From the NCBI GenBank assembly GCA_945861675.1, contig CAMAVY010000002.1, forward strand, positions 1-64,000: a stretch of 64,000 bases of DNA. The letters are read 5' to 3'. The stretch is from Klebsiella pneumoniae (GTDB lineage: Bacteria > Pseudomonadota > Gammaproteobacteria > Pseudomonadales > Azotimanducaceae). Shown here piece after piece: positions 3,897-13,985 of the stretch (positions within the stretch are counted from its first letter, which is position 1; each line of letters starts with the position of its first letter). The notes below the pieces were generated by a model, which saw nothing but the letters and a program-made list of their open reading frames with translations, was not told the origin of the DNA and did no database searches. A program made the position numbers and the translations under genes.

Positions 3897-5291
3897 ATGC
3901 ATGGGGTGCTGCCGCTGGAACGACCAATGTCGCGCGCATCGGAGCAGGTGCGAATTCCGCGTGTGTTTGCCTATTGGTCGATGGCGTTGCTGTGTTGCGG
4001 TGCGGTTGTGGAAGGGCATTCGCAATTGTTGGCTTCGATTGCGGTGGTTTATCTCGTCGGTTCGCCGGCGCTCTGGCATGCCTTCGCCACACGGGCGTCG
4101 TCGGGCACCGGTGTGTGTCTTGTCGAGCGGCGGCGCGGCCGGACGGCGCCTTCACCTGACGTGGCGATGACCTGCACGGAGGCGATCATGAGCAGCGCCT
4201 TTTCGGTCTTCGCGTTACCGCTGTCGCTTGCGATCGCTGCGCTGGCAGGGCTGATTCTCGTGCGCGTTGCGACGCAAGGTCGGTCGCAAGGTGCGGCGTT
4301 TCTGCTGGCCTTGGGCGCGGGCGCATTGATTGGCGTGCTCGCCGCACGCAGCTACTCAGGCGCGGCGTGGCCTTCCGTGATGTCCGTCGGGCAGCTGGCG
4401 GCGGTGGCGTTGTGGCTGTTCATGCTTGCGCTTGCGATTGCGTGGGTCGGGAACAATACGCGGCAGGGACTGCGCGTGGCGCATGCGCGGGCCAGCGGCA
4501 TCTCCGCTGACATCGCGTGCCTGGCGCAGCGTCTAGGGCGCTACCTCCCGCCGACCGTGCGGCAAACATTGATGGACAGGGTGCTGCACGATGCGGAGGT
4601 CAGCACCGGCATGTCGGACATCGATCGTCTGCTGGACGTCTCCGCGACGCGACATGTCTCGCAGCGGCGTTGGTTGACGGTGTGTTTCTCGGACATTGTT
4701 GGCTTCACGGCAATGACGGAGCGGCTGGAACCGGAGGAAGTGTCCGTCTTGCTCGATGCCTACCAGCGCGAAGTGTCGACGGCGGTTGCAGTGCACGGTG
4801 GCACGCTGGACAAATTCCTTGGCGATGGCGCGATGGTCATCTTCGGCGACGGGGAACATTCGGATCGGCATGCAGATGCAGCCGCAGGCGTGCGCATGGC
4901 AATCGCGCTGCAGGCGGCGATGTCGGGCCTGAATGCCCGACTCTCGGCGATGGGCATTCGCGTCGGGATGCAGCTGCGAATCGGCGTCGCATCGGGCATC
5001 TGCACGGTGGGTGATTTCGGTAGCGATGATCGATTGCACTACACGGCGCTGGGTCGAGCGGTGAATCTCGCCAGCCGGCTTGAGAGTGCAGCAGGGCCGG
5101 GTGAGATTCTGCTCGCTGAGTCCGCCGCTGATCTTGTCGCGGGTGAGTTGGCTTGCGATCGCGCGGGTGAGCTGCAGGTAAAAGGAATCACCTGGCCGGT
5201 CGCCGTATACACGCCGCGCCGGCGTCGAGCTCTGGAGAGCGACTCGCCGTTCTCAGGGGATTGGCCCGCATTGGCCGTCGTGCCCCAATGA
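3897..5291 (+). CDS. membrane-anchored class III adenylate/guanylate cyclase
   Basis: Several N-terminal hydrophobic helices. C-terminal cyclase homology domain (FSDIVGFTAMTE...LDKFLGDGAMVIFG...LRIGVASGICTVGDFGS...ALGRAVNLASRLESAA). Start uncertain, alternatives at ~4165 and ~4189. Confidence 0.7.
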   Translation: MHGVLPLERPMSRASEQVRIPRVFAYWSMALLCCGAVVEGHSQLLASIAVVYLVGSPALWHAFATRASSGTGVCLVERRRGRTAPSPDVAMTCTEAIMSSAFSVFALPLSLAIAALAGLILVRVATQGRSQGAAFLLALGAGALIGVLAARSYSGAAWPSVMSVGQLAAVALWLFMLALAIAWVGNNTRQGLRVAHARASGISADIACLAQRLGRYLPPTVRQTLMDRVLHDAEVSTGMSDIDRLLDVSATRHVSQRRWLTVCFSDIVGFTAMTERLEPEEVSVLLDAYQREVSTAVAVHGGTLDKFLGDGAMVIFGDGEHSDRHADAAAGVRMAIALQAAMSGLNARLSAMGIRVGMQLRIGVASGICTVGDFGSDDRLHYTALGRAVNLASRLESAAGPGEILLAESAADLVAGELACDRAGELQVKGITWPVAVYTPRRRRALESDSPFSGDWPALAVVPQ

Positions 5292-5465: not shown

Positions 5466-6509
5466 GTGACCGACGACCGACTCACACAATCGTTGTTCTT
5501 GAAGGCATGCAGAGGCGAGCGCACGGCGCGGACACCCGTGTGGCTGAATCGGCAGGCCGGGCGGTATATGCCGGAATATCACCGAGTGAAGGGCAATACG
5601 CCGTCACTCGACTTTTTCAAGACGCCGGAGCTGGCCGCGACGGTGACCTGCGATGCGCAGCGCATCCTGGGCGTTGACGCGGCGATCATGTTTGCAGATC
5701 TGCTTCCTGTGCTTGAACCGATGGGCTTGCAGCTGGACTACCTGCCGTCTTTGGGCCCGAAGTTCAGCAATCCTGTGCGAGACGCGGCGGCGGTAGACGC
5801 ATTGCGTGTAGTTCCAGCGAAGGAGGGCACGCCCTACATCGCGGATACGGTGAGGTTGATTCGTCGCGAACTGTCGGCGGACATCCCGCTGATTGGTTTC
5901 GCCGGCGCGCCCTTTACCTTGGCTTCCTATGCAATTGAGGGCCAGGGGTCGAAGGAATATCTGCACATGAAGCGCTTCATGTATGGCGACTCCGGCGCCT
6001 GGGCTGCGCTGATGAACAAACTTGTTCAGCAGGTCGCCGACTACGTGCTGCTGCAGATTGAAGCAGGCGTGCAGGCCGTGCAGATCTTCGACTCCTGGGT
6101 TGGCTGCCTGTCTGTGTCGGACTATCTGGAGTACGCGCAGCCCTATACCCGTGAGCTGTTTCGACTCATTGGTGGACGTGTGCCCGTGATCTACTTCGGG
6201 ACGGGGAACCCGCACCTGGTCGACGACATGTACCGTTGCGGACCTGACGTCATGGCGCTCGACTGGCGTACGCCGTTGGTGCCGACCTGGGAACGCTTAG
6301 GTTGTCGTGCAGTTCAGGGCAATCTCGATCCGATTGTGCTGTGTTCGACCCCGGCGGTCGTGCGACGTCAGGTAGAACGGGTGCTTGGGGAAGTGGATGG
6401 TCGACCGGGACACATCTTCAATCTGGGGCACGGAATCGTGCCGTCGACGCCCGTCGACAACGTGAAGTTGCTGGTGGATTGCGTCCACGAATACCGGGCT
6501 CGCACTTAG
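5466..6509 (+). CDS. hemE: uroporphyrinogen decarboxylase
   Basis: GTG start. TPVWLNRQAGRYMPEY signature and full-length HemE-like sequence. Confidence 0.9.
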   Translation: MTDDRLTQSLFLKACRGERTARTPVWLNRQAGRYMPEYHRVKGNTPSLDFFKTPELAATVTCDAQRILGVDAAIMFADLLPVLEPMGLQLDYLPSLGPKFSNPVRDAAAVDALRVVPAKEGTPYIADTVRLIRRELSADIPLIGFAGAPFTLASYAIEGQGSKEYLHMKRFMYGDSGAWAALMNKLVQQVADYVLLQIEAGVQAVQIFDSWVGCLSVSDYLEYAQPYTRELFRLIGGRVPVIYFGTGNPHLVDDMYRCGPDVMALDWRTPLVPTWERLGCRAVQGNLDPIVLCSTPAVVRRQVERVLGEVDGRPGHIFNLGHGIVPSTPVDNVKLLVDCVHEYRART

Positions 6510-6603
6510 CTTCGGTCTTGCGCGACGCGGGCAAGGCTTTGCTGGCGCTTCCCTCGCCGGGGCGCTGCGGTCAGGTAATCTGCGGCGCCTTTTTCCTGCG
6601 CAC

Positions 6604-6632
6604 AAAAAAACGCCGGGCTTTTGGCCCGGCGT
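6604..6632 (-). terminator. Rho-independent terminator read on the minus strand, downstream of small peptide gene A
   Basis: GC stem CGCCGGGC-TTTT-GGCCCGGCG. Followed by TTTTTTT on the minus strand, A7 on the plus strand. Could also serve hemE weakly. Confidence 0.5.
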
Positions 6633-6688
6633 TGGCCGCATGTTGAGCGACCGTACGGGGAGGACTGTGCATCAGGGCCAGGCCGGGC

Positions 6689-6772
6689 TCAGCTGAGGAA
6701 GGTCAGGATGAGGCCATAAGAAGTAGCGACGGCAATCGTTGCGCTGATGAGAACTGTGGTGAAACGATCCAT
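6689..6772 (-). CDS. 27-aa hydrophobic small membrane peptide, paralog A (MDRFTTVLISATIAVATSYGLILTFLS)
   Basis: ATG start with AAGGTAACA RBS-like sequence. Single predicted TM helix. Two paralogs nearby with ~75% nucleotide identity. Terminator downstream. Divergent from the LysR gene. Confidence 0.55.
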   Translation of the reverse strand: MDRFTTVLISATIAVATSYGLILTFLS

Positions 6773-6800
6773 GACTGTTACCTTTGGTTGCGGTTTATGT

Positions 6801-6815
6801 GTTACGTAAAGTAAC
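6801..6815. promoter_or_regulatory. Inverted repeat GTTAC-N5-GTAAC (GTTACGTAAAGTAAC), putative operator upstream of peptide A in the lysR-peptide intergenic region
   Basis: Palindrome ~35 bp upstream of the peptide A start. Contains a T-N11-A LysR-type motif (TTACGTAAAGTAA). The same arms recur upstream of paralog C. Confidence 0.45.
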
Positions 6816-6939
6816 GCTTGCGGTAGCAGTCGCCAAGTGAGAAGTTTGCGTTTCGGCGTTGCGTGATTGCGTATCGCCACGGAGCAGCACCCTTCCTCGC
6901 AAGGGTCCAAGTGCGGGCGCACCACCTGAGGCACACGAG

Positions 6940-7848
6940 ATGACACGGCTGGATTGGGAAGATCTGAAGGTCTTCGTGGCGCTGGCGCGTGGTGGCTCTA
7001 TGCGGGCGGCCGGCTCCGAGTTGGGTATTCACGCGTCGACCGTGGCGCGCCGTCTCGAACAACTGGAGAAAAGGCTTGGTACCCGTCTCTTCGATCGTGG
7101 TGGTCTTGCGCTTACGTTGACCATGAGTGGGGAGGAGTTGCGCGGCTATGCGGCTCGGGTCGAACAGGAGATCGAAAGCCTGGAGTTGCATCTCTTCGGT
7201 CGTGACGATCGGATGGCGGGGCCACTGAGGCTGAGCTTGCCCGACGTGGTTGCCACGCCGTTCCTGCTCGAAGACGTTGCGCGCTTCGCAGCCCTGTATC
7301 CGGATATCTCCATCGAACTGCTGCCGTCCTACGAGGTTGTGGATCTGGCCAAGCGACAAGCCGACGTGGCCATTCGCGTCACGACAACCCCGCCTGAGCA
7401 TCTTGTAGGCCGAAAGCTCGCCAGCTTTGCGATGAGCGTCTATGCCTCGCCAGCGTATCTTGAGACGCATGACCCCATCGGCGCACCCGGAAAATGTGCC
7501 TGGCTCGGATGGGGTACGGACACCCTGATCGATGAGCGTGCGCTTGCCTGGTTTCCCGGCGTACCGGTGAAGACGTTGGTTCGCAATGTGCCGTTGCAGG
7601 CTTCCGCCGCTCGGGCCGGCCTGGGCATGGCCGTGTTGCCTTGCGGCGTGGGGGATCCAGATAAAGGATTGGTGAGGGTCCCGCCAGCTCAGGCGGTCAA
7701 TGGTGGTGATCTCTGGGTGCTTACGCACCCTGAATTGCGTTCGGCGGCACGCATACGCGCCTTCCTGGAGTGTTGCACTCAGTCGTTCCGAGCAAATCAG
7801 GCGGCGATGATGGGCGGTCTGAACGAGTTCGAGATAGCCCCGGCCTGA
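6940..7848 (+). CDS. LysR-family transcriptional regulator
   Basis: N-terminal HTH (MTRLDWEDLKVFVALARGGSMRAAGSELGIHASTVARRLEQLE). C-terminal LysR substrate-binding domain. Divergent from peptide gene A. Confidence 0.85.
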   Translation: MTRLDWEDLKVFVALARGGSMRAAGSELGIHASTVARRLEQLEKRLGTRLFDRGGLALTLTMSGEELRGYAARVEQEIESLELHLFGRDDRMAGPLRLSLPDVVATPFLLEDVARFAALYPDISIELLPSYEVVDLAKRQADVAIRVTTTPPEHLVGRKLASFAMSVYASPAYLETHDPIGAPGKCAWLGWGTDTLIDERALAWFPGVPVKTLVRNVPLQASAARAGLGMAVLPCGVGDPDKGLVRVPPAQAVNGGDLWVLTHPELRSAARIRAFLECCTQSFRANQAAMMGGLNEFEIAPA

Positions 7849-7885
7849 CCAGCTCGCGTCAGGCCGTCGAGGCCAGCGCTTGAGT

Positions 7886-7969
7886 TCAGGTCAGGAAGGT
7901 CCATGCCGTGAATAGCGAGATCGCGCCAGCCACCGATGCGCCGATGAGTGCGTTGGTAAATCGATCCAA
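7886..7969 (-). CDS. 27-aa hydrophobic small membrane peptide, paralog B ((f)MDRFTNALIGASVAGAISLFTAWTFLT), TTG start
   Basis: AGGAGA RBS 5 nt upstream of TTG. Same length as paralogs A and C, N-terminal xDRFT and C-terminal TFL(S/T) conserved. GTTACG half-site upstream. Confidence 0.45.
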   Translation of the reverse strand: MDRFTNALIGASVAGAISLFTAWTFLT

Positions 7970-8183
7970 GATTTTCTCCTGAGCAGGGCCTGGGTTTGCC
8001 GTGGTTACGTCTGAGCGGGTCACATCTGCGTGGATGCGAGGTCAGCGTAGTTGTCAGGAGGGAGTGTGCTGGTGGGGGATATGAGAAGCGGGTCAAGAAT
8101 GCGGAAAACGGTCGGCGAAGGGCTGCAGATCAAGTTTCGTTGAGCTGCGGCACCTTCGCCGCCGTGTGCGCCGCGCGCACCCT

Positions 8184-8267
8184 TTACGACAGGAAGGTCA
8201 GGAGGGTGGTGAGCGAGATGCCGATGGCAATCGTGGCGCTGATCAGGATGGTGGTGAAGCGATCCAT
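8184..8267 (-). CDS. 27-aa hydrophobic small membrane peptide, paralog C (MDRFTTILISATIAIGISLTTLLTFLS)
   Basis: ATG start, GAGGTAACA RBS. Nucleotide-level similarity to paralog A. Palindrome GTTAC-N5-GTAAC ~30 bp upstream. Confidence 0.55.
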   Translation of the reverse strand: MDRFTTILISATIAIGISLTTLLTFLS

Positions 8268-8294
8268 TTGTGTTACCTCAAGTACGTTGTTGGT

Positions 8295-8309
8295 GTTACT
8301 TAAGGTAAC
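8295..8309. promoter_or_regulatory. Inverted repeat GTTACTTAAGGTAAC, putative operator upstream of peptide C
   Basis: Same GTTAC/GTAAC arms and spacing as the element at 6801-6815, in the equivalent position relative to the start codon. Confidence 0.4.
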
Positions 8310-8599
8310 GGTGTGTAGAAGATTCACCAAGCGCAATTTTCGCGACGCACCATCGCATAAATGCGCACACCTCTTGAGCTGCGCGCGGCGATCTGTTGAT
8401 GGACCGGTTCGCCTGTGTGTCTTCCAGAAACCCTGCCTTGGTCGAGGCGTACACGATCATCGCAATCGTTCCCGGTCGATTCGATGCTGTCTGGGCAGCA
8501 CCGTCGCATCCAGACCACTCGATCGCTTCATGGCGGGCATGACGCGATCTCAATGCACCGATCCCGATATCACCGCCCAAGAGACACTGCGCTCGAGGT

Positions 8600-8960
8600 G
8601 ATATGTCAATGACTGCGTTCACCGCCGCGATGCTCATGCCCGGGCGCAGGCTCTCGCAGACCATGGCGAAGACGCCGAACAGCAGGCCGAACAGGGTGAT
8701 CTACAGCACCGCTTGCCAGAGCTCTGATAGCCGTGCGTCACCCCGAGCAGCAGCGCTTGCAGGATGAGCCCGACAGGAGCGCTGCGCACCAGCGCGCCGA
8801 ACTGTTTCTGCAGATGACCGCTGAACGTAAGTTCCTCGATGAACCCGGCGCTGACGGAGATCCGGATCCAGTTCGGGACAGGGCTTGCAGCTGCCCTGGA
8901 AACTCGTTGGCCGGGAGCCGTCGTACGAGAGCCTGCTCCAACTAAGTGAGTTGCGTCAAA
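8600..8960 (-). pseudogene. Remnant of a CPBP (CAAX protease / Abi bacteriocin-immunity family) intramembrane metalloprotease gene
   Basis: Minus-strand translation gives ...SAGFIEELTFSGHLQKQFGALV...LLLGVTHGYQ (CPBP motif 1 EExxFRG with R>S, and motif 2 FxxxH). Reading frame then breaks. N-terminal part missing at the vapC boundary. Confidence 0.35.
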
Positions 8961-8999
8961 GTGGAGACGCGGGCTCTCATGTACGTCTCGTATTCGCGT

Positions 9000-9422
9000 T
9001 CAGGCGCGCACTGGAAGCGCAACGAGGGGTACGAGCTTCAGGCGTCGCGCCCGCCGAGCGAACCGGCGGTCGTCGAATGTCACAAGCTGGTCGCAGTTGC
9101 GACTGCACGACCAATGCAGCGCATCGGCGAAGTCGAACCCCTGTTGATGCAGCGCGGCCGCGTCCTGGACGGCCTCCCAACGGTCAACGGTGACGTGCGG
9201 CATTCCGATGAGATTCGCAATCACATCGCAGAATTCTGCTGGCGTTGACTGGTAGAACCCGCGCATCACCCACTCGAACTCAAGGATGACACTCAGTGGG
9301 ACGAAGACTGCGTCTGATTCGAGCATGACCCGACGGGCGAGCGGGCGTTGTTTCGCTGCCTCTGGGTCCTGCGGGTCGTCGCAATAGAACCGCGCCAACA
9401 CGTTAGTGTCGACCGCGATCAC
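9000..9422 (-). CDS. vapC: PIN-domain ribonuclease toxin VapC
   Basis: (M)IAVDTNVLARFY...PIN-domain acidic residues. GTG start overlapping the vapB stop (GTGA). Confidence 0.8.
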   Translation of the reverse strand: MIAVDTNVLARFYCDDPQDPEAAKQRPLARRVMLESDAVFVPLSVILEFEWVMRGFYQSTPAEFCDVIANLIGMPHVTVDRWEAVQDAAALHQQGFDFADALHWSCSRNCDQLVTFDDRRFARRARRLKLVPLVALPVRA

Positions 9423-9676
9423 GGTTTCCGGGACCTCCGAAGCGACGCTGCGGCGTCGAAATCCATCAGCCGTCGAGGCCTTGTGGCTCGCTTGACCTTC
9501 ACCATTCCGTAGCCGGCCGCGGGATCTGTGGGCGGGACGCGCCGCCGGATCACCAGCCGAATGACACCGCCTTCATCCACGAACTCGACCTGCGTGCCGG
9601 GCGTGAGCTCATACCTCGCGCGTATTTCCGCCGGGATGATGATCTGTCCCTTTGCGGTGAGCGTCGCCGCTGCCAT
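9419..9676 (-). CDS. vapB: AbrB/MazE-type antitoxin VapB
   Basis: 85 aa. SpoVT/AbrB-like swapped-hairpin N-terminus (AKGQIIIPAEIRARYEL). AGGAG RBS. Directly upstream of and overlapping vapC. Confidence 0.75.
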   Translation of the reverse strand: MAAATLTAKGQIIIPAEIRARYELTPGTQVEFVDEGGVIRLVIRRRVPPTDPAAGYGMVKVKRATRPRRLMDFDAAASLRRSRKP

Positions 9677-9699
9677 CGGTGCGACTCCTGAATTGTGGG

Positions 9700-10560
9700 C
9701 GGAAGAGTAGCACGGCTTACCTAGTAAGCGACCACGTGATCGGCGGAGGTGTCGACCTGGAGCGCTTCGGGCCGCTGCCGCGGATAAAGCGAATGCCTGC
9801 GTCGCACGTGGCGCAGGATCCGGATGCTGAAACTGCCGACGCGCACCCTACGACTGCACCACCTCGAACCTCGTGCCCGGGCTGCCACCTACTTCCAGTT
9901 CGCAGTTGCCGTAGGCTTCGCGCGTCGCATAGCGCGTCGTTGCGTCGAAAGGAAGCTGCGCGTAGCCGCGATCACAGCGCAACCTGAGCGTCGCCACTCT
10001 GCCTTCCAGCAGGCGGAGACGACGAAGCGGCGTTTCAGCAACGGGAGCAGCCACGCGCGGTTGTCGGACAGCTTGCCCGCCGTCTTGAACCCGCGCGCGT
10101 CGGTGGCGAGCAACGCGAGCTCCTCGTTCAGCCTCAGGTTTGCGGGCAGGGCGCGCAGGTTCGGGTCCAGTTGGGCGAGCGTAGCCCGTGCGCGCCCGAG
10201 GTCCTGACGCCTCGCGTGCAGCCGCAACAGCATCTCTAGCGCGGCGCGTCGGATGGACTGCGGTAGCGCGTCGCCGTAGATCTGCCCTTGCAAGGCGCGT
10301 TCGAACACTTCCACCTGTTGTTGCTCGCTGCCCCAGCGCCCGGCGAAGTACGCCTCCGTGAAGGAGACGTACACACCCTCGTCGAACGTCCGGGCGCGCA
10401 GATCTGCAATAGCGCGCTCGGCTTCGGCGCGATCGCCCGGATCGATGGCACCGGCTTGCTACGCCATATTGCAGGCGAAAAGCGTACGCGGCACATCCAA
10501 TCCAGCGCGCTCGCCGTCTATGCGGGTTCGCCGGACCAGCGGTTGATGGCGATGGCCTGT
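9700..10560 (-). pseudogene. Degraded remnant of a BTAD/SARP-like (TPR-containing transcriptional activator domain) regulator gene
   Basis: Minus-strand frames give ...IDPGDRAEAERAIADLRARTFDEGVYVSFTEAYFAGRWGSEQQQVEVFERALQ...LEMLLRLHARRQDLGRARATL..., interrupted by stops and frameshifts. No intact ORF >161 aa. Confidence 0.3.
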
Positions 10561-10950
10561 GGTTGCCCGAGCTGATCAGCTACGAGGCGGAACGCGACCC
10601 AGGCATCTCACGTGCCGTGTCGCTTGGGAAGCGGAGCACCGGGCTCGCTAGGATTGTTGGTGGGACGAAATCAGCCGTCGCCTGGGCGGTGCTCATCTAG
10701 CGCGGCGCCGAGTCCATGGTTGTCTTTTCCGCCGGCGCCGCTGCGGCGTGTGCCGCTCGACCGGCGCAGTCCAGCGCGCTGCAGCTGGCGGGTCTCGATG
10801 CGGCGGACGACCACCTCAAGGCAGCGGCTGAGTGCCTTCGGGGCGCGCGGCGAAGAGCATGCGCAGCGGCCAGGCGAAGCTCAGAACCCACTGCCGGACA
10901 GGCACCTGGGAATGACCTGGACGATGAGATGCGCGGCGCTCCGGCTTCAG

Positions 10951-12621
10951 CTAGTCGGTGGTCACTGCGCCGAGCGATGCCGACGACACCTGCTTCGCAT
11001 ACTTCCCAAGCAAGCCGCGTGTCGCATAGGGCGCTGGGCGAGTCCATGCGTCGCGGCGCCGGGCCATCTCTTCGTCGGAAACCCCGACGGTGACCTGATT
11101 GTTCTGCGCATCGATGGTGATGGGATCGCCATCCTGCAGCAGGGCGATGGGCCCGCCGTCGAAGGCTTCGGGTGTGACGTGCCCGATCACGAACCCGTGA
11201 GAGCCACCTGAAAAACGCCCATCGGTGAGCAGCGCAACGTCCTTTGCGAGCCCGCGCCCGTTGATCGCGCTCGTCGGCGACAGCATCTCGCGCATGCCTG
11301 GCCCGCCACGCGGCCCCTCATATCGAATCACGACCACATCGCCTTTTTTCACGTCGCCTGCAAGCACAGCCTGTAATGCGGCCTCTTCGCCGTGGTAACA
11401 GCGCGCGTGCCCCGAGAACGTCAGACCTTCGTTGCCCGTGATCTTGGCAACTGCGCCGCCCGGGGCCAGGTTTCCGTACAGCACCACAAGGTGGCTGTCC
11501 TTCTTGATCGGTGCGGAGAGCGGCCGAATGATCTGCTGCCCATCGGGATAGGGCGCAACGTCAGCAAGGTTCTCAGCCAGGGTCTTGCCGGTGACCGTCA
11601 TGCAGCCGCCGTGCAGCAGACCTGCGTCGAGCAACGTCTTCATCAACGGCTGGATGCCACCGATGTCTATCAGTTCACTCATCGCATACTTGCCGGCCGG
11701 CCGCATGTCCGCCACCACCGGAACGCGCTTACCGATGCGCGTGAAATCGTCGAGCGTCAGCGGGATGCCTGCTTCGTGCGCAATCGCCAGTAGATGCAGC
11801 ACTGCATTCGTTGAGCCTTCCAGCGCGATCACCGTGGTGATGGCATTTTCGAAGGCCTCGCGGCACAGGATGTCAGAGGGACGAATGCCGCGCGCCAGCA
11901 GGTGATGCACCGCCGCGCCCGCGTTGTAGCTGTCGCGGCGCTTCTGCTCACCGACCGCTTCCTGGGCCGAGCTGTTGGGCAGGGACAGCCCCAACGCTTC
12001 TATCGCTGACGCCATGGAGTTGGCGGTGTACATACCGCCACACGAACCTGCGCCGGGAATGGCCGTCGCTTCGATCTCGCGCAATTCCGTGGCCGAAATG
12101 CGCCCGGCAGAAAAAGCACCGACGGCTTCGAACACACTGATGACGTCGCGCCGCTCCTTGCCCAGTTGAATGGTGCCGCCATAGACGAATACCGCTGGCC
12201 GGTTGAGCCGCGCAATCGCCATTGCGCAACCCGGCATGTTCTTGTCGCAACCGCCGATGGCCACGAAGCCATCGAAGCCTTGTCCGGCCACAACCGTCTC
12301 AATGGAGTCAGCGATCACTTCGCGTGACACCAGCGAATAGCGCATGCCTGGTGTCCCCATCGCGATCCCGTCAGCGATGGTGATGGTGTTGAAGATCAGG
12401 CTCTTTGCGCCACTCTCGTCGACGCCCATCGCGGCGGCTTCTGCCAGCGCATTGATGTGCACGTTGCAGGGCGTCAGATTGCTCCAGGTCGAGGCGATGC
12501 CAATCTGCGGCTTCTGGAAGTCGGCATCGCTGAACCCCACGGCGCGCAACATGGCCCGGCTTGGAGCCTGCTCTACGCCGTCGACGACAACGGATGAATA
12601 ACGACGGCGTTCGTCGGCCAC
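10951..12621 (-). CDS. ilvD: dihydroxy-acid dehydratase (short ~557-aa IlvD/EDD-family form)
   Basis: [35 protein letters not shown] and CDKNMPG motifs. GTG start at 12619-12621 with AAGGAG RBS lying inside the argA 3' end. The track ATG at 12912 would give an implausible ~96-aa extension. Confidence 0.85.
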
Positions 12622-12623
12622 GG

Positions 12624-13985
12624 CTAAAGCTCCTTGATCAGTACTTTGGAATTGCGCTGCATATTGTAGAGAGCGAGCTTCGATGCTGGCAGGTCGGACA
12701 GCTCTGCTGATTGAAAGCCATGTTCGCGAAACCAGTCGCTGGTACGCGTTGTCAGTGCAAACAAACGCGTCAGACCATGCTGGCGCGCGCGATTGACGAT
12801 GGCGTTCAGCAGGTTTTCGCCGAGCGAGACTTGTTCGCCCGACTCGGCCAGGCTGCTCGCGGCGCCATGCGTAGACGGCCTGTTGCGGTAGTCCGGATGC
12901 GTTGCCAGGCATGCCAGCTCGCCGCTGCCTGACTCGGGATAGGGATAAAGGGCGGCGCAGCCGATGATCAAGCCATCCAACTCGGCCACCACGAAGCGGT
13001 CGATCTCGCGTTCCAGAAGTTCGCGCGAGCGGCGCACCAGATAGCCCTTTTCCTCAAGTGGCCGAATGAGATCGAGGATGCCGGCCACGTCGTCCATGCT
13101 CGCTCCACGCATTCGCTCTGCGCTGTGTTCGCTGACCGCCGTGCCGGCGCCGATGTGCGTGAACAGCTCTGTAAGCAGATCGCCGTCTTCGACATAGCTG
13201 ACCACGTGGCAGCGCGCGACGGCGCTCTGCGCGGCGCGTGCAACGGCGTTCAAACGCACACCGCGCGGCGTCTGTTCGGGGATATGTGCGGCGACGATGC
13301 GTACCAGATCGCTGGGCGACAGCTCGGAGATCAGGTTGCCGTCGCGGTCCAGTACACCCGGCCGATCATCGAGCACGATGAGCTTGTCTGCCGCCAGTTC
13401 GATCGCCACGGTCGCGGCAAGATCATCGGCATTGAGGTTGAACGCCTCGCCTGTCGGCGAGTAGCCGATCGGCGAGATGAGCACAGTGTTGCCTGCGTCC
13501 AGTTGAAACCTGATACCGGCCACATCGATTCGGCGCACGGCGCCGGTGTACCCGAGGTCTACCCCATCGAGTACGCCCATGGGGCGTGCGACCACGAAGT
13601 TGCCGCTGATCACCCGCACGCGCGACCTGTGCATGGGGGTTCCCGAAACGCCTGTGGCAAGGCTGGCCTCGATGCCAAACCGCACTGCGCCCACGACCTG
13701 CTTCACCACGGTCATCGACTTTGCGCTGGTCACGCGCAGGTGCTGCTGGTAACGCGGCACCTCGCCCGCCTGTGTGAGTGCTTCTTCGATCTGCTGCCGC
13801 GCGCCGTGCACCAGTACCAGACGGATGCCCAGGCTCGTCATCAGCGCAATGTCGTGCGTGATGTGTTCCAGGTGCTCTGATGCAATGGCATCACCGCCCA
13901 GTGCCAGCACGAAGGTGCGCCCGCGATGGGTGTTGATGTAGGGCGCGCTGTCGCGCAGCCATTTCACGAATTCACTGTTGGCCAT
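12624..13985 (-). CDS. argA: amino-acid N-acetyltransferase (N-acetylglutamate synthase)
   Basis: Amino-acid kinase-like N-terminal domain plus C-terminal GNAT. Strong resemblance to ArgA throughout ([15 protein letters not shown]-type N-terminus). Confidence 0.85.

Follow-up and report, generated by a model that had tools for sequence, protein, structure and literature searches.

What lies between hemE and ilvD in this genome, and how much of it still functions? The window (contig CAMAVY010000002.1 of assembly GCA_945861675.1, 64,000 nucleotides (nt)) carries a 4.4-kb insert between these two core genes, and the studied interval, 8296-10950, is the right-hand part of that insert. A preliminary description had read the interval as a decaying accessory islet that holds a remnant of a CPBP (CAAX protease and bacteriocin-processing) gene, an intact vapBC toxin-antitoxin pair and a frameshifted regulator, all close to three small peptide genes. 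Our analysis favors a patchwork insert, in which a live mobile vapBC pair sits between two dead genes in an otherwise ordinary decaying islet, with a probability of roughly 0.8.

A live vapBC pair between two dead genes

The vapBC pair is intact, as had been described. VapC matched the Pfam PIN domain (PF01850) over residues 2-125 (E = 1.6e-7; its 32.4 bits exceed the cut-off, 23.6), and VapB matched both MazE_antitoxin of Pfam (E = 1.7e-8) and the AbrB model TIGR01439 (E = 7.9e-11). The GTG start of vapC overlaps the vapB stop codon as GTGA (overlap sequence CCGTGATCG), and an AGGAG ribosome-binding site is found 9 nt upstream of the vapB ATG (start sequence CAGGAGTCGCACCGATG). Residues D5, E48, D100 and D117 of VapC were invariant in a 22-member alignment that included the window protein; by their position in the PIN pattern they are the predicted active-site acidic residues. 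The antitoxin-first order, the 4-bp gene overlap and the N-terminal AbrB/SpoVT-MazE-type domain of the antitoxin are shared with AbrB-type VapBC systems such as VapBC/MvpAT of Shigella flexneri (PMC3384007).

Homologues of VapC were abundant, with 2813 proteins at E < 1e-20 and the best of these 69-77% identical. Where named, they were called VapC at NCBI, and their sources were metagenome-assembled genomes (MAGs) of Acidobacteria and Burkholderiales. The same vapB-vapC pair was present in an Acidobacteria MAG (L171/L172), in a toxin-antitoxin-rich island beside AbiEii. DNA likeness to this copy (73%) began at the vapB start and broke off no more than 40 nt short of the vapC stop. Since the similarity is confined to the vapBC coding region, it delimits a mobile two-gene cassette, and the family is evidently very widespread, highly conserved and mobile.

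If the pair behaves as its family does, VapC would be a Mg2+-dependent PIN endoribonuclease that arrests translation and VapB would neutralize it by direct binding. With its AbrB-type DNA-binding domain, VapB would also repress the operon, and a perfect palindrome some 40 nt ahead of the vapB start, CTTAC-TAG-GTAAG, is a candidate operator at which it might act. The half-sites of this palindrome (TTAC/GTAA) resemble those of palindromes at the peptide genes described below at a different spacing, which is probably coincidence.

Downstream of vapC, the CPBP motifs EELTFSG (8817-8837) and LLLGVTHG (8730-8753) share one minus-strand frame. This frame (8637-8999) reads ...PVPNWIRISVSAGFIEELTFSGHLQKQFGALVRSAPVGLILQALLLGVTHGYQSSG and matched the Rce1-like family of Pfam (PF02517, E = 1.2e-6). 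Two lesions follow: the frame shifts near 8715, and 8701-8703 is a TAG stop. Past them the homology resumes in another frame as ITLFGLLFGVFAMVCESLRPGMSIAAVNAVI. When the frames were stitched together, profile positions 16-90 of 93 were covered and the match improved to E = 2.2e-9; the single-frame and stitched matches are both above the cut-off of 22.4 bits. A word-indexed search for homologues gave a sole match, the metagenomic CPBP protein P0001, which is 53% identical to the remnant. Motif 1 is EELTFRG in P0001 but EELTFSG in the remnant (R>S), the His of motif 2 is kept, and motif 3 (HxxxD) is HALTD in P0001 but AAVNA in the remnant, with both His and Asp lost. The broken frames and the R>S change noted in the preliminary description were thus borne out. 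Membrane helices precede P0001 in its own contig (L082), in other frames; nowhere in the window could a counterpart of this N-terminal membrane part be detected, so the remnant is the C-terminal half alone.

Compared with the CPBP family (PF02517 Rce1-like, formerly 'Abi'), the remnant keeps the motif order EExxxR...FxxxH...HxxxD/N and the spacing, in agreement with profile positions 3-90 of 93, but, unlike family members, has the C-terminal half only, degraded motifs 1 and 3, a stop and a frameshift. It has neither intact EExxxR/FxxxH/HxxxD/N motifs in one frame nor full membrane helices. Judged by these features, it is a pseudogene from the PF02517 family that cannot be an active protease. 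Its extent needed correction. The remnant had been placed from 8296 onward, but CPBP-related sequence ends at about 8590, and 8296-8590 holds merely the tail of a chance open reading frame (ORF) and the conserved leader region of the peptide gene pep3. The ORF in question, 8296-8664 on the minus strand, was discarded as a candidate gene: it matched no family and overlaps a conserved peptide unit.

The second dead gene lies upstream of vapB. An exhaustive search with its longest stop-free stretch (9892-10458) returned 58 proteins, most of them 330-400 residues in length. With about 30% identity, every one of them aligns across residues ~150-310 of its own sequence. The TonB_C domain of Pfam was found near the N-terminus in 42/42 aligned homologues, and the NCBIfam model tonB_Cterm agreed. 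Using tblastn and a family hidden Markov model, we located profile positions 51-121 at 10443-10655 (E = 3.7e-10), positions 142-299 at 10015-10479 in a second frame (E = 7.6e-32) and positions 299-353 at 9851-10015 in a third (E = 2.7e-18). Positions 51-353 of 353 were recovered collinearly across these frames, which are interrupted by in-frame stops at 10608-10610, 10518-10520 and 10459-10461 and by two frameshifts. The natural stop codon is at 9848-9850, the C-terminal tail that precedes it (...GSPGTRFEVVQS) fits the conserved end of the family, and the 5' end, corresponding to the signal-peptide part, falls somewhere in 10656-10900.

In this family of secreted proteins of about 360 amino acids (aa), the TonB_C domain (PF03544, TIGR01352) is N-terminal, right after a signal or anchor helix; a TPR-like helical domain and then a beta-sandwich, ending in ...PGTxFxLxQS, come after it. 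The AlphaFold model of one member (predicted local distance difference test score 89.8) has an N-terminal helix, the TonB_C domain, eight helices and a beta-sandwich. Canonical TonB has a proline-rich spacer, and this is not present in the ~360-aa family. To our knowledge the function of this architecture is uncharacterized. Members P0003-P0059 (~330-400 aa) share the layout of signal/anchor helix, TonB_C, TPR-like domain and beta-sandwich with the tail LRC..Y...C.LEL.G.PGT.F.L.QS, and their last ~220 residues are covered by no family model.

This region had been labeled as about 0.9 kb of frameshifted BTAD/TPR-like regulator sequence. It is indeed a pseudogene, and 'TPR-like' holds for the part that had been seen. 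The BTAD label was dropped, as neither the window fragments nor the 42 homologues gave a BTAD match and no DNA-binding domain was found; the homologues carry TonB_C instead. In place of the plan of BTAD regulators (AfsR/DnrI/EmbR type), the ~360-aa family has a signal peptide or anchor and TonB_C, and its members are therefore envelope proteins rather than transcription factors.

Could the broken frames be errors of sequencing or assembly, or sites of programmed recoding, so that the CPBP and TonB-like genes are functional? High-G+C, metagenome-derived sequence can carry indel errors, and a 161-aa ORF is still called within the TonB-like region. However, the lesions were reproduced in a Logan contig (L081) that is 100% identical to the window and in an ENA contig from another sample (L170) that is 99.97% identical over 8528-12422, so that three independent assemblies from different samples agree. 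The lesions amount to four nonsense codons and three frameshifts in total, and the CPBP gene has in addition lost catalytic residues and its whole N-terminal half. The TAG stop of the CPBP remnant is also common to two diverged contigs (L163/L164, from samples ERZ28573555 and ERZ27314300, 88% identical over 6445-8719), which add 10- and 12-bp indels in the remnant. The shared stop places the death of the CPBP gene in the common ancestor or earlier, with decay still continuing. We regard error or recoding as very improbable.

The coordinates of the features are collected in Table 1.

Table 1. Features of the hemE-ilvD region, in window coordinates.
Feature	Position	Strand	Basis or remark
hemE	5466-6509	+	ORF listing, six-frame translation
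Whole lineage-specific insert, 4.4 kb	6510-10950		between hemE and ilvD
Intrinsic terminator	6609-6633		after hemE
pep1	6692-6772	-	ORF listing, six-frame translation
LysR-family regulator gene	6940-7848	+	ORF listing, six-frame translation
pep2	7889-7969	-	ORF listing, six-frame translation
pep3	8187-8267	-	ORF listing, six-frame translation
pep3 leader/promoter region	8268-8378	-	within the studied interval; not CPBP sequence
CPBP remnant	8590-8885	-	Pfam PF02517 match and P0001 alignment
vapC	9000-9422	-	intact, 140 aa, PIN domain
vapB	9419-9676	-	intact, 85 aa, AbrB/SpoVT-MazE type
Perfect 13-nt palindrome CTTAC-TAG-GTAAG	9716-9728	-	read from sequence
TonB_C-family pseudogene	9851-10655 (at least)	-	tblastn and family hidden Markov model
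ilvD	10951-12621	-	ORF listing, six-frame translation
argA	12624-13985	-	ORF listing, six-frame translation

The peptide genes and their LysR neighbor

Left of the CPBP remnant are three genes for paralogous 27-aa hydrophobic peptides (pattern MDRFTT.LISATIA...LTFLS), with a gene for a LysR-family regulator between the first and the second. The preliminary description had suggested that the CPBP/Abi gene conferred self-immunity in a bacteriocin-like locus, of which the peptides would be the surviving payload. The remnant shares the strand of pep3 and pep2 and lies immediately upstream of them, which fits this idea, and a self-immunity role has been proposed for CAAX/CPBP proteins in Gram-positive bacteriocin loci (PMC8692603). 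Several observations argue otherwise. The LysR gene separates pep1 from the remnant, and a more distant relative (L165) has retained pep1, LysR and pep2 in this order. A bacteriocin locus with CPBP immunity would pair an intact CPBP gene with co-inherited peptide genes whose products carry a leader or a double-glycine motif; the peptides here have neither, and the CPBP gene is dead in both comparable lineages. Among the relatives, none had an intact CPBP gene at this site, and no related peptide gene was detected beside the closest CPBP homologue, P0001, on its contig of only 1.3 kb.

The pattern of substitution also separates the peptides from the CPBP gene. Between the window and L163, the LysR gene has a synonymous divergence of 0.449 and a non-synonymous divergence of 0.02. 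The pep2 core differs by 5 synonymous and 0 non-synonymous changes and pep3 by 2 and 0 (7 and 0 together), while pep1 is unchanged over 84 nt, against about 10 synonymous changes expected from LysR. The peptides are thus still under purifying selection although the CPBP gene is dead, and was so in the common ancestor. Furthermore, pep1 and pep3 each carry a conserved palindrome, CTTGG box and ribosome-binding site of their own. By these comparisons, the peptides behave as LysR-linked, independently constrained genes and not as cargo of the dead CPBP gene, and we consider an immunity partnership improbable.

Conservation around the peptides reaches beyond the coding sequence. In sliding windows against the 88%-identical relative, the pep1 unit (6595-6865, from terminator to upstream palindrome) and the pep3 unit (8148-8360) were 95-100% identical, compared with 73-90% for their surroundings; the pep2 core (7908-7997) was 93-95% identical, and 60-nt windows across the pep3 leader (8268-8357) were 100% identical. 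For pep1 and pep3 even synonymous sites and the leader are conserved, as is the terminator in the case of pep1, a pattern which suggests that not only the protein but also the RNA or a regulatory site is constrained. At pep1 (in three lineages) and at pep3 there are an invariant GTTAC-N5-GTAAC palindrome, whose loop bases vary, a CTTGG box and AGGTAACA; the pep3 leader combines the palindrome with the ribosome-binding site GAGGTAACA. The palindrome is missing from pep2, which is less conserved, and a terminator is predicted for pep1 alone.

The palindromes lie about 30 nt upstream of pep1 (~6800-6815) and pep3 (~8295-8310) on the minus strand. They fit the T-N11-A pattern of a LysR box and are candidate sites, and the divergent placement of pep1 and LysR is the classic arrangement of regulator and target. 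As an alternative for pep3, the left arm of the palindrome could pair with the ribosome-binding site in a 13-bp hairpin that buries it (z = -3.2). The place of pep1, divergent to LysR, is taken in relatives with a 52-68% identical LysR by a secreted protein of 107-117 aa with no Pfam family (161-514 in L166, 2-286 in L167 and 1078-1401 in L169; sequences MNRLSATIFSLAILCC..., MKTLTTAFAVLLGMAAA...). Its signal peptide is faintly like the peptides, and pep1 might, speculatively, descend from the 5' end of such a partner gene.

A role of the peptides as attenuation leader peptides for ilvD was rejected, as they lie downstream of ilvD and no gene follows on their strand. A scan of metagenome contigs with [ML]DRFT[TN][VAI]LI gave 61 stretches, of which 0 passed tblastn; with a query of 27 aa, this outcome carries no information. 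In public assemblies of this sequence, automatic annotation calls a 201-aa ORF at 7996-8601 (+) and a 161-aa ORF at 9889-10374 (-). The former, called in L081, was dismissed as a chance ORF that has no homologues, matches no family and overlaps the conserved peptide units, which lie on the other strand; the latter covers no more than part of the TonB-like pseudogene.

What is unusual in the islet is confined to the peptide/LysR units. A tentative view, to which we attach a low probability, is that the three peptides, linked to LysR, form an undescribed small-gene system and that the decaying genes around it are debris. These could be new LysR-controlled membrane peptides or type-I-toxin-like genes, constrained in both RNA and protein, for which the CPBP protein may once have been a processing or protection partner that later became dispensable.

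Origin of the insert

Twenty relatives, with hemE 57-69% identical to that of the window, were available for synteny. The source is an uncultured gammaproteobacterium; the nearest species representatives by hemE (61-69% identical) were Candidatus Azotimanducaceae, Pseudomonadales and Gammaproteobacteria MAGs, and hemE scans of the genome and metagenome collections found no relative above 69% identity. In 13/20 relatives argA and/or ilvD followed hemE, mostly within ~1 kb (~6 kb in L010), and none of the 20 carried any of the insert genes (LysR, peptides, CPBP, VapBC or TonB-like) at the site between hemE and ilvD/argA. The preliminary description was therefore right that the stretch interrupts core synteny and is a lineage-specific, decaying islet. 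The length of the hemE-ilvD junction itself varies, from ~0.4 kb (L003) through 1 kb (L006) to 6 kb in L010, where unrelated genes fill it.

Closer relatives were reached solely through a search with the LysR protein. The order hemE-pep1-LysR-pep2 is kept in L165, a more distant relative whose LysR is 86% identical. In two metagenomic contigs (L166, L167) with LysR 66-68% identical, LysR abuts ilvD, with a gap of 9 bp in L166; everything between LysR and ilvD in the window is thus inserted. The pieces differ in G+C content (0.57-0.58 around the peptides, 0.635 in vapBC and 0.666 in the TonB-like pseudogene), which is consistent with a mixed origin and a patchwork of separate acquisitions.

The comparison with L163/L164, whose contigs end at 8719, revealed a break in divergence. 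LysR and the sequence to its left are ~87% identical, whereas the sequence from pep2 to 8719 is 92-98% identical, pseudogene included. The junction at 7849-7885 (37 nt) is 65% identical with a 7-nt gap. This suggests that the segment right of ~7886 was exchanged between lineages more recently than LysR diverged (synonymous divergence 0.45). Might the segment from pep2 to at least 8719 then be a recently exchanged mobile unit, with vapBC and the peptides as its stabilization or defense payload and the pseudogenes hitch-hiking? The divergence break, the gapped junction, the direct contact of LysR and ilvD in L166/L167 and the clear horizontal mobility of the vapBC family all favor such a unit. 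However, no mobility genes or terminal repeats were found, PADLOC models of anti-phage defense gave no match, the contigs of the relatives stop at 8719 and so fall short of vapBC, and the unequal G+C of the pieces runs counter to a single origin. A single mobile unit is possible but on balance doubtful.

We prefer the patchwork, in which the pieces would have been acquired separately and would now stand at different stages of decay between hemE and ilvD. As for the order of events, the arrival of vapBC probably truncated the CPBP gene: the N-terminal membrane half is missing, and recognizable homology begins ~115 nt from the vapC stop. Replacement of the CPBP 5' end by vapBC, as proposed in the preliminary description, is plausible but unproven. 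That vapBC alone is intact could reflect its addictive nature or simply a recent arrival.

Some results weigh against the patchwork or against parts of it. No tRNA gene, integrase, insertion sequence element or flanking direct repeat was found to mark the insert. No relative has an intact CPBP or TonB-like gene at this site, none was found that preserves the locus as it stood before insertion, and truncation of the CPBP gene by insertion is for that reason not demonstrated. In sequence and profile searches against solved structures, no relative of VapB or VapC was detected. The window pair has no detectable likeness to solved VapB/VapC proteins and belongs to the large environmental subfamily of 2813 matches, of which we know no characterized member; as there is no close characterized homologue, the PIN assignment draws on the Pfam match and the conserved acidic residues.

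The interval itself challenges nothing in current understanding. The chief gain is a corrected annotation, in which the pseudogenes have exact boundaries and the remnant at 9.85-10.65 kb is assigned to its true family. The locus is also a small, clean example of a selfish toxin-antitoxin cassette that has outlived its neighbors in a variable gap between two core genes. Two uncharacterized items could repay study, the ~360-aa TonB_C/TPR/beta-sandwich family and the adjoining conserved peptide units.

A few minor points concern the surroundings. An Rfam scan of 6000-11500 gave nothing meaningful, its sole matches being sub-threshold and on the terminator at 6605-6721. The annotated ilvD ORF reaches upstream to 12912, overlapping argA, and the real ilvD start is at 12621. 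Upstream of hemE, at 3897-5291, is a gene for an adenylate/guanylate-cyclase-like membrane protein that is syntenic in many relatives (28-46% identity).

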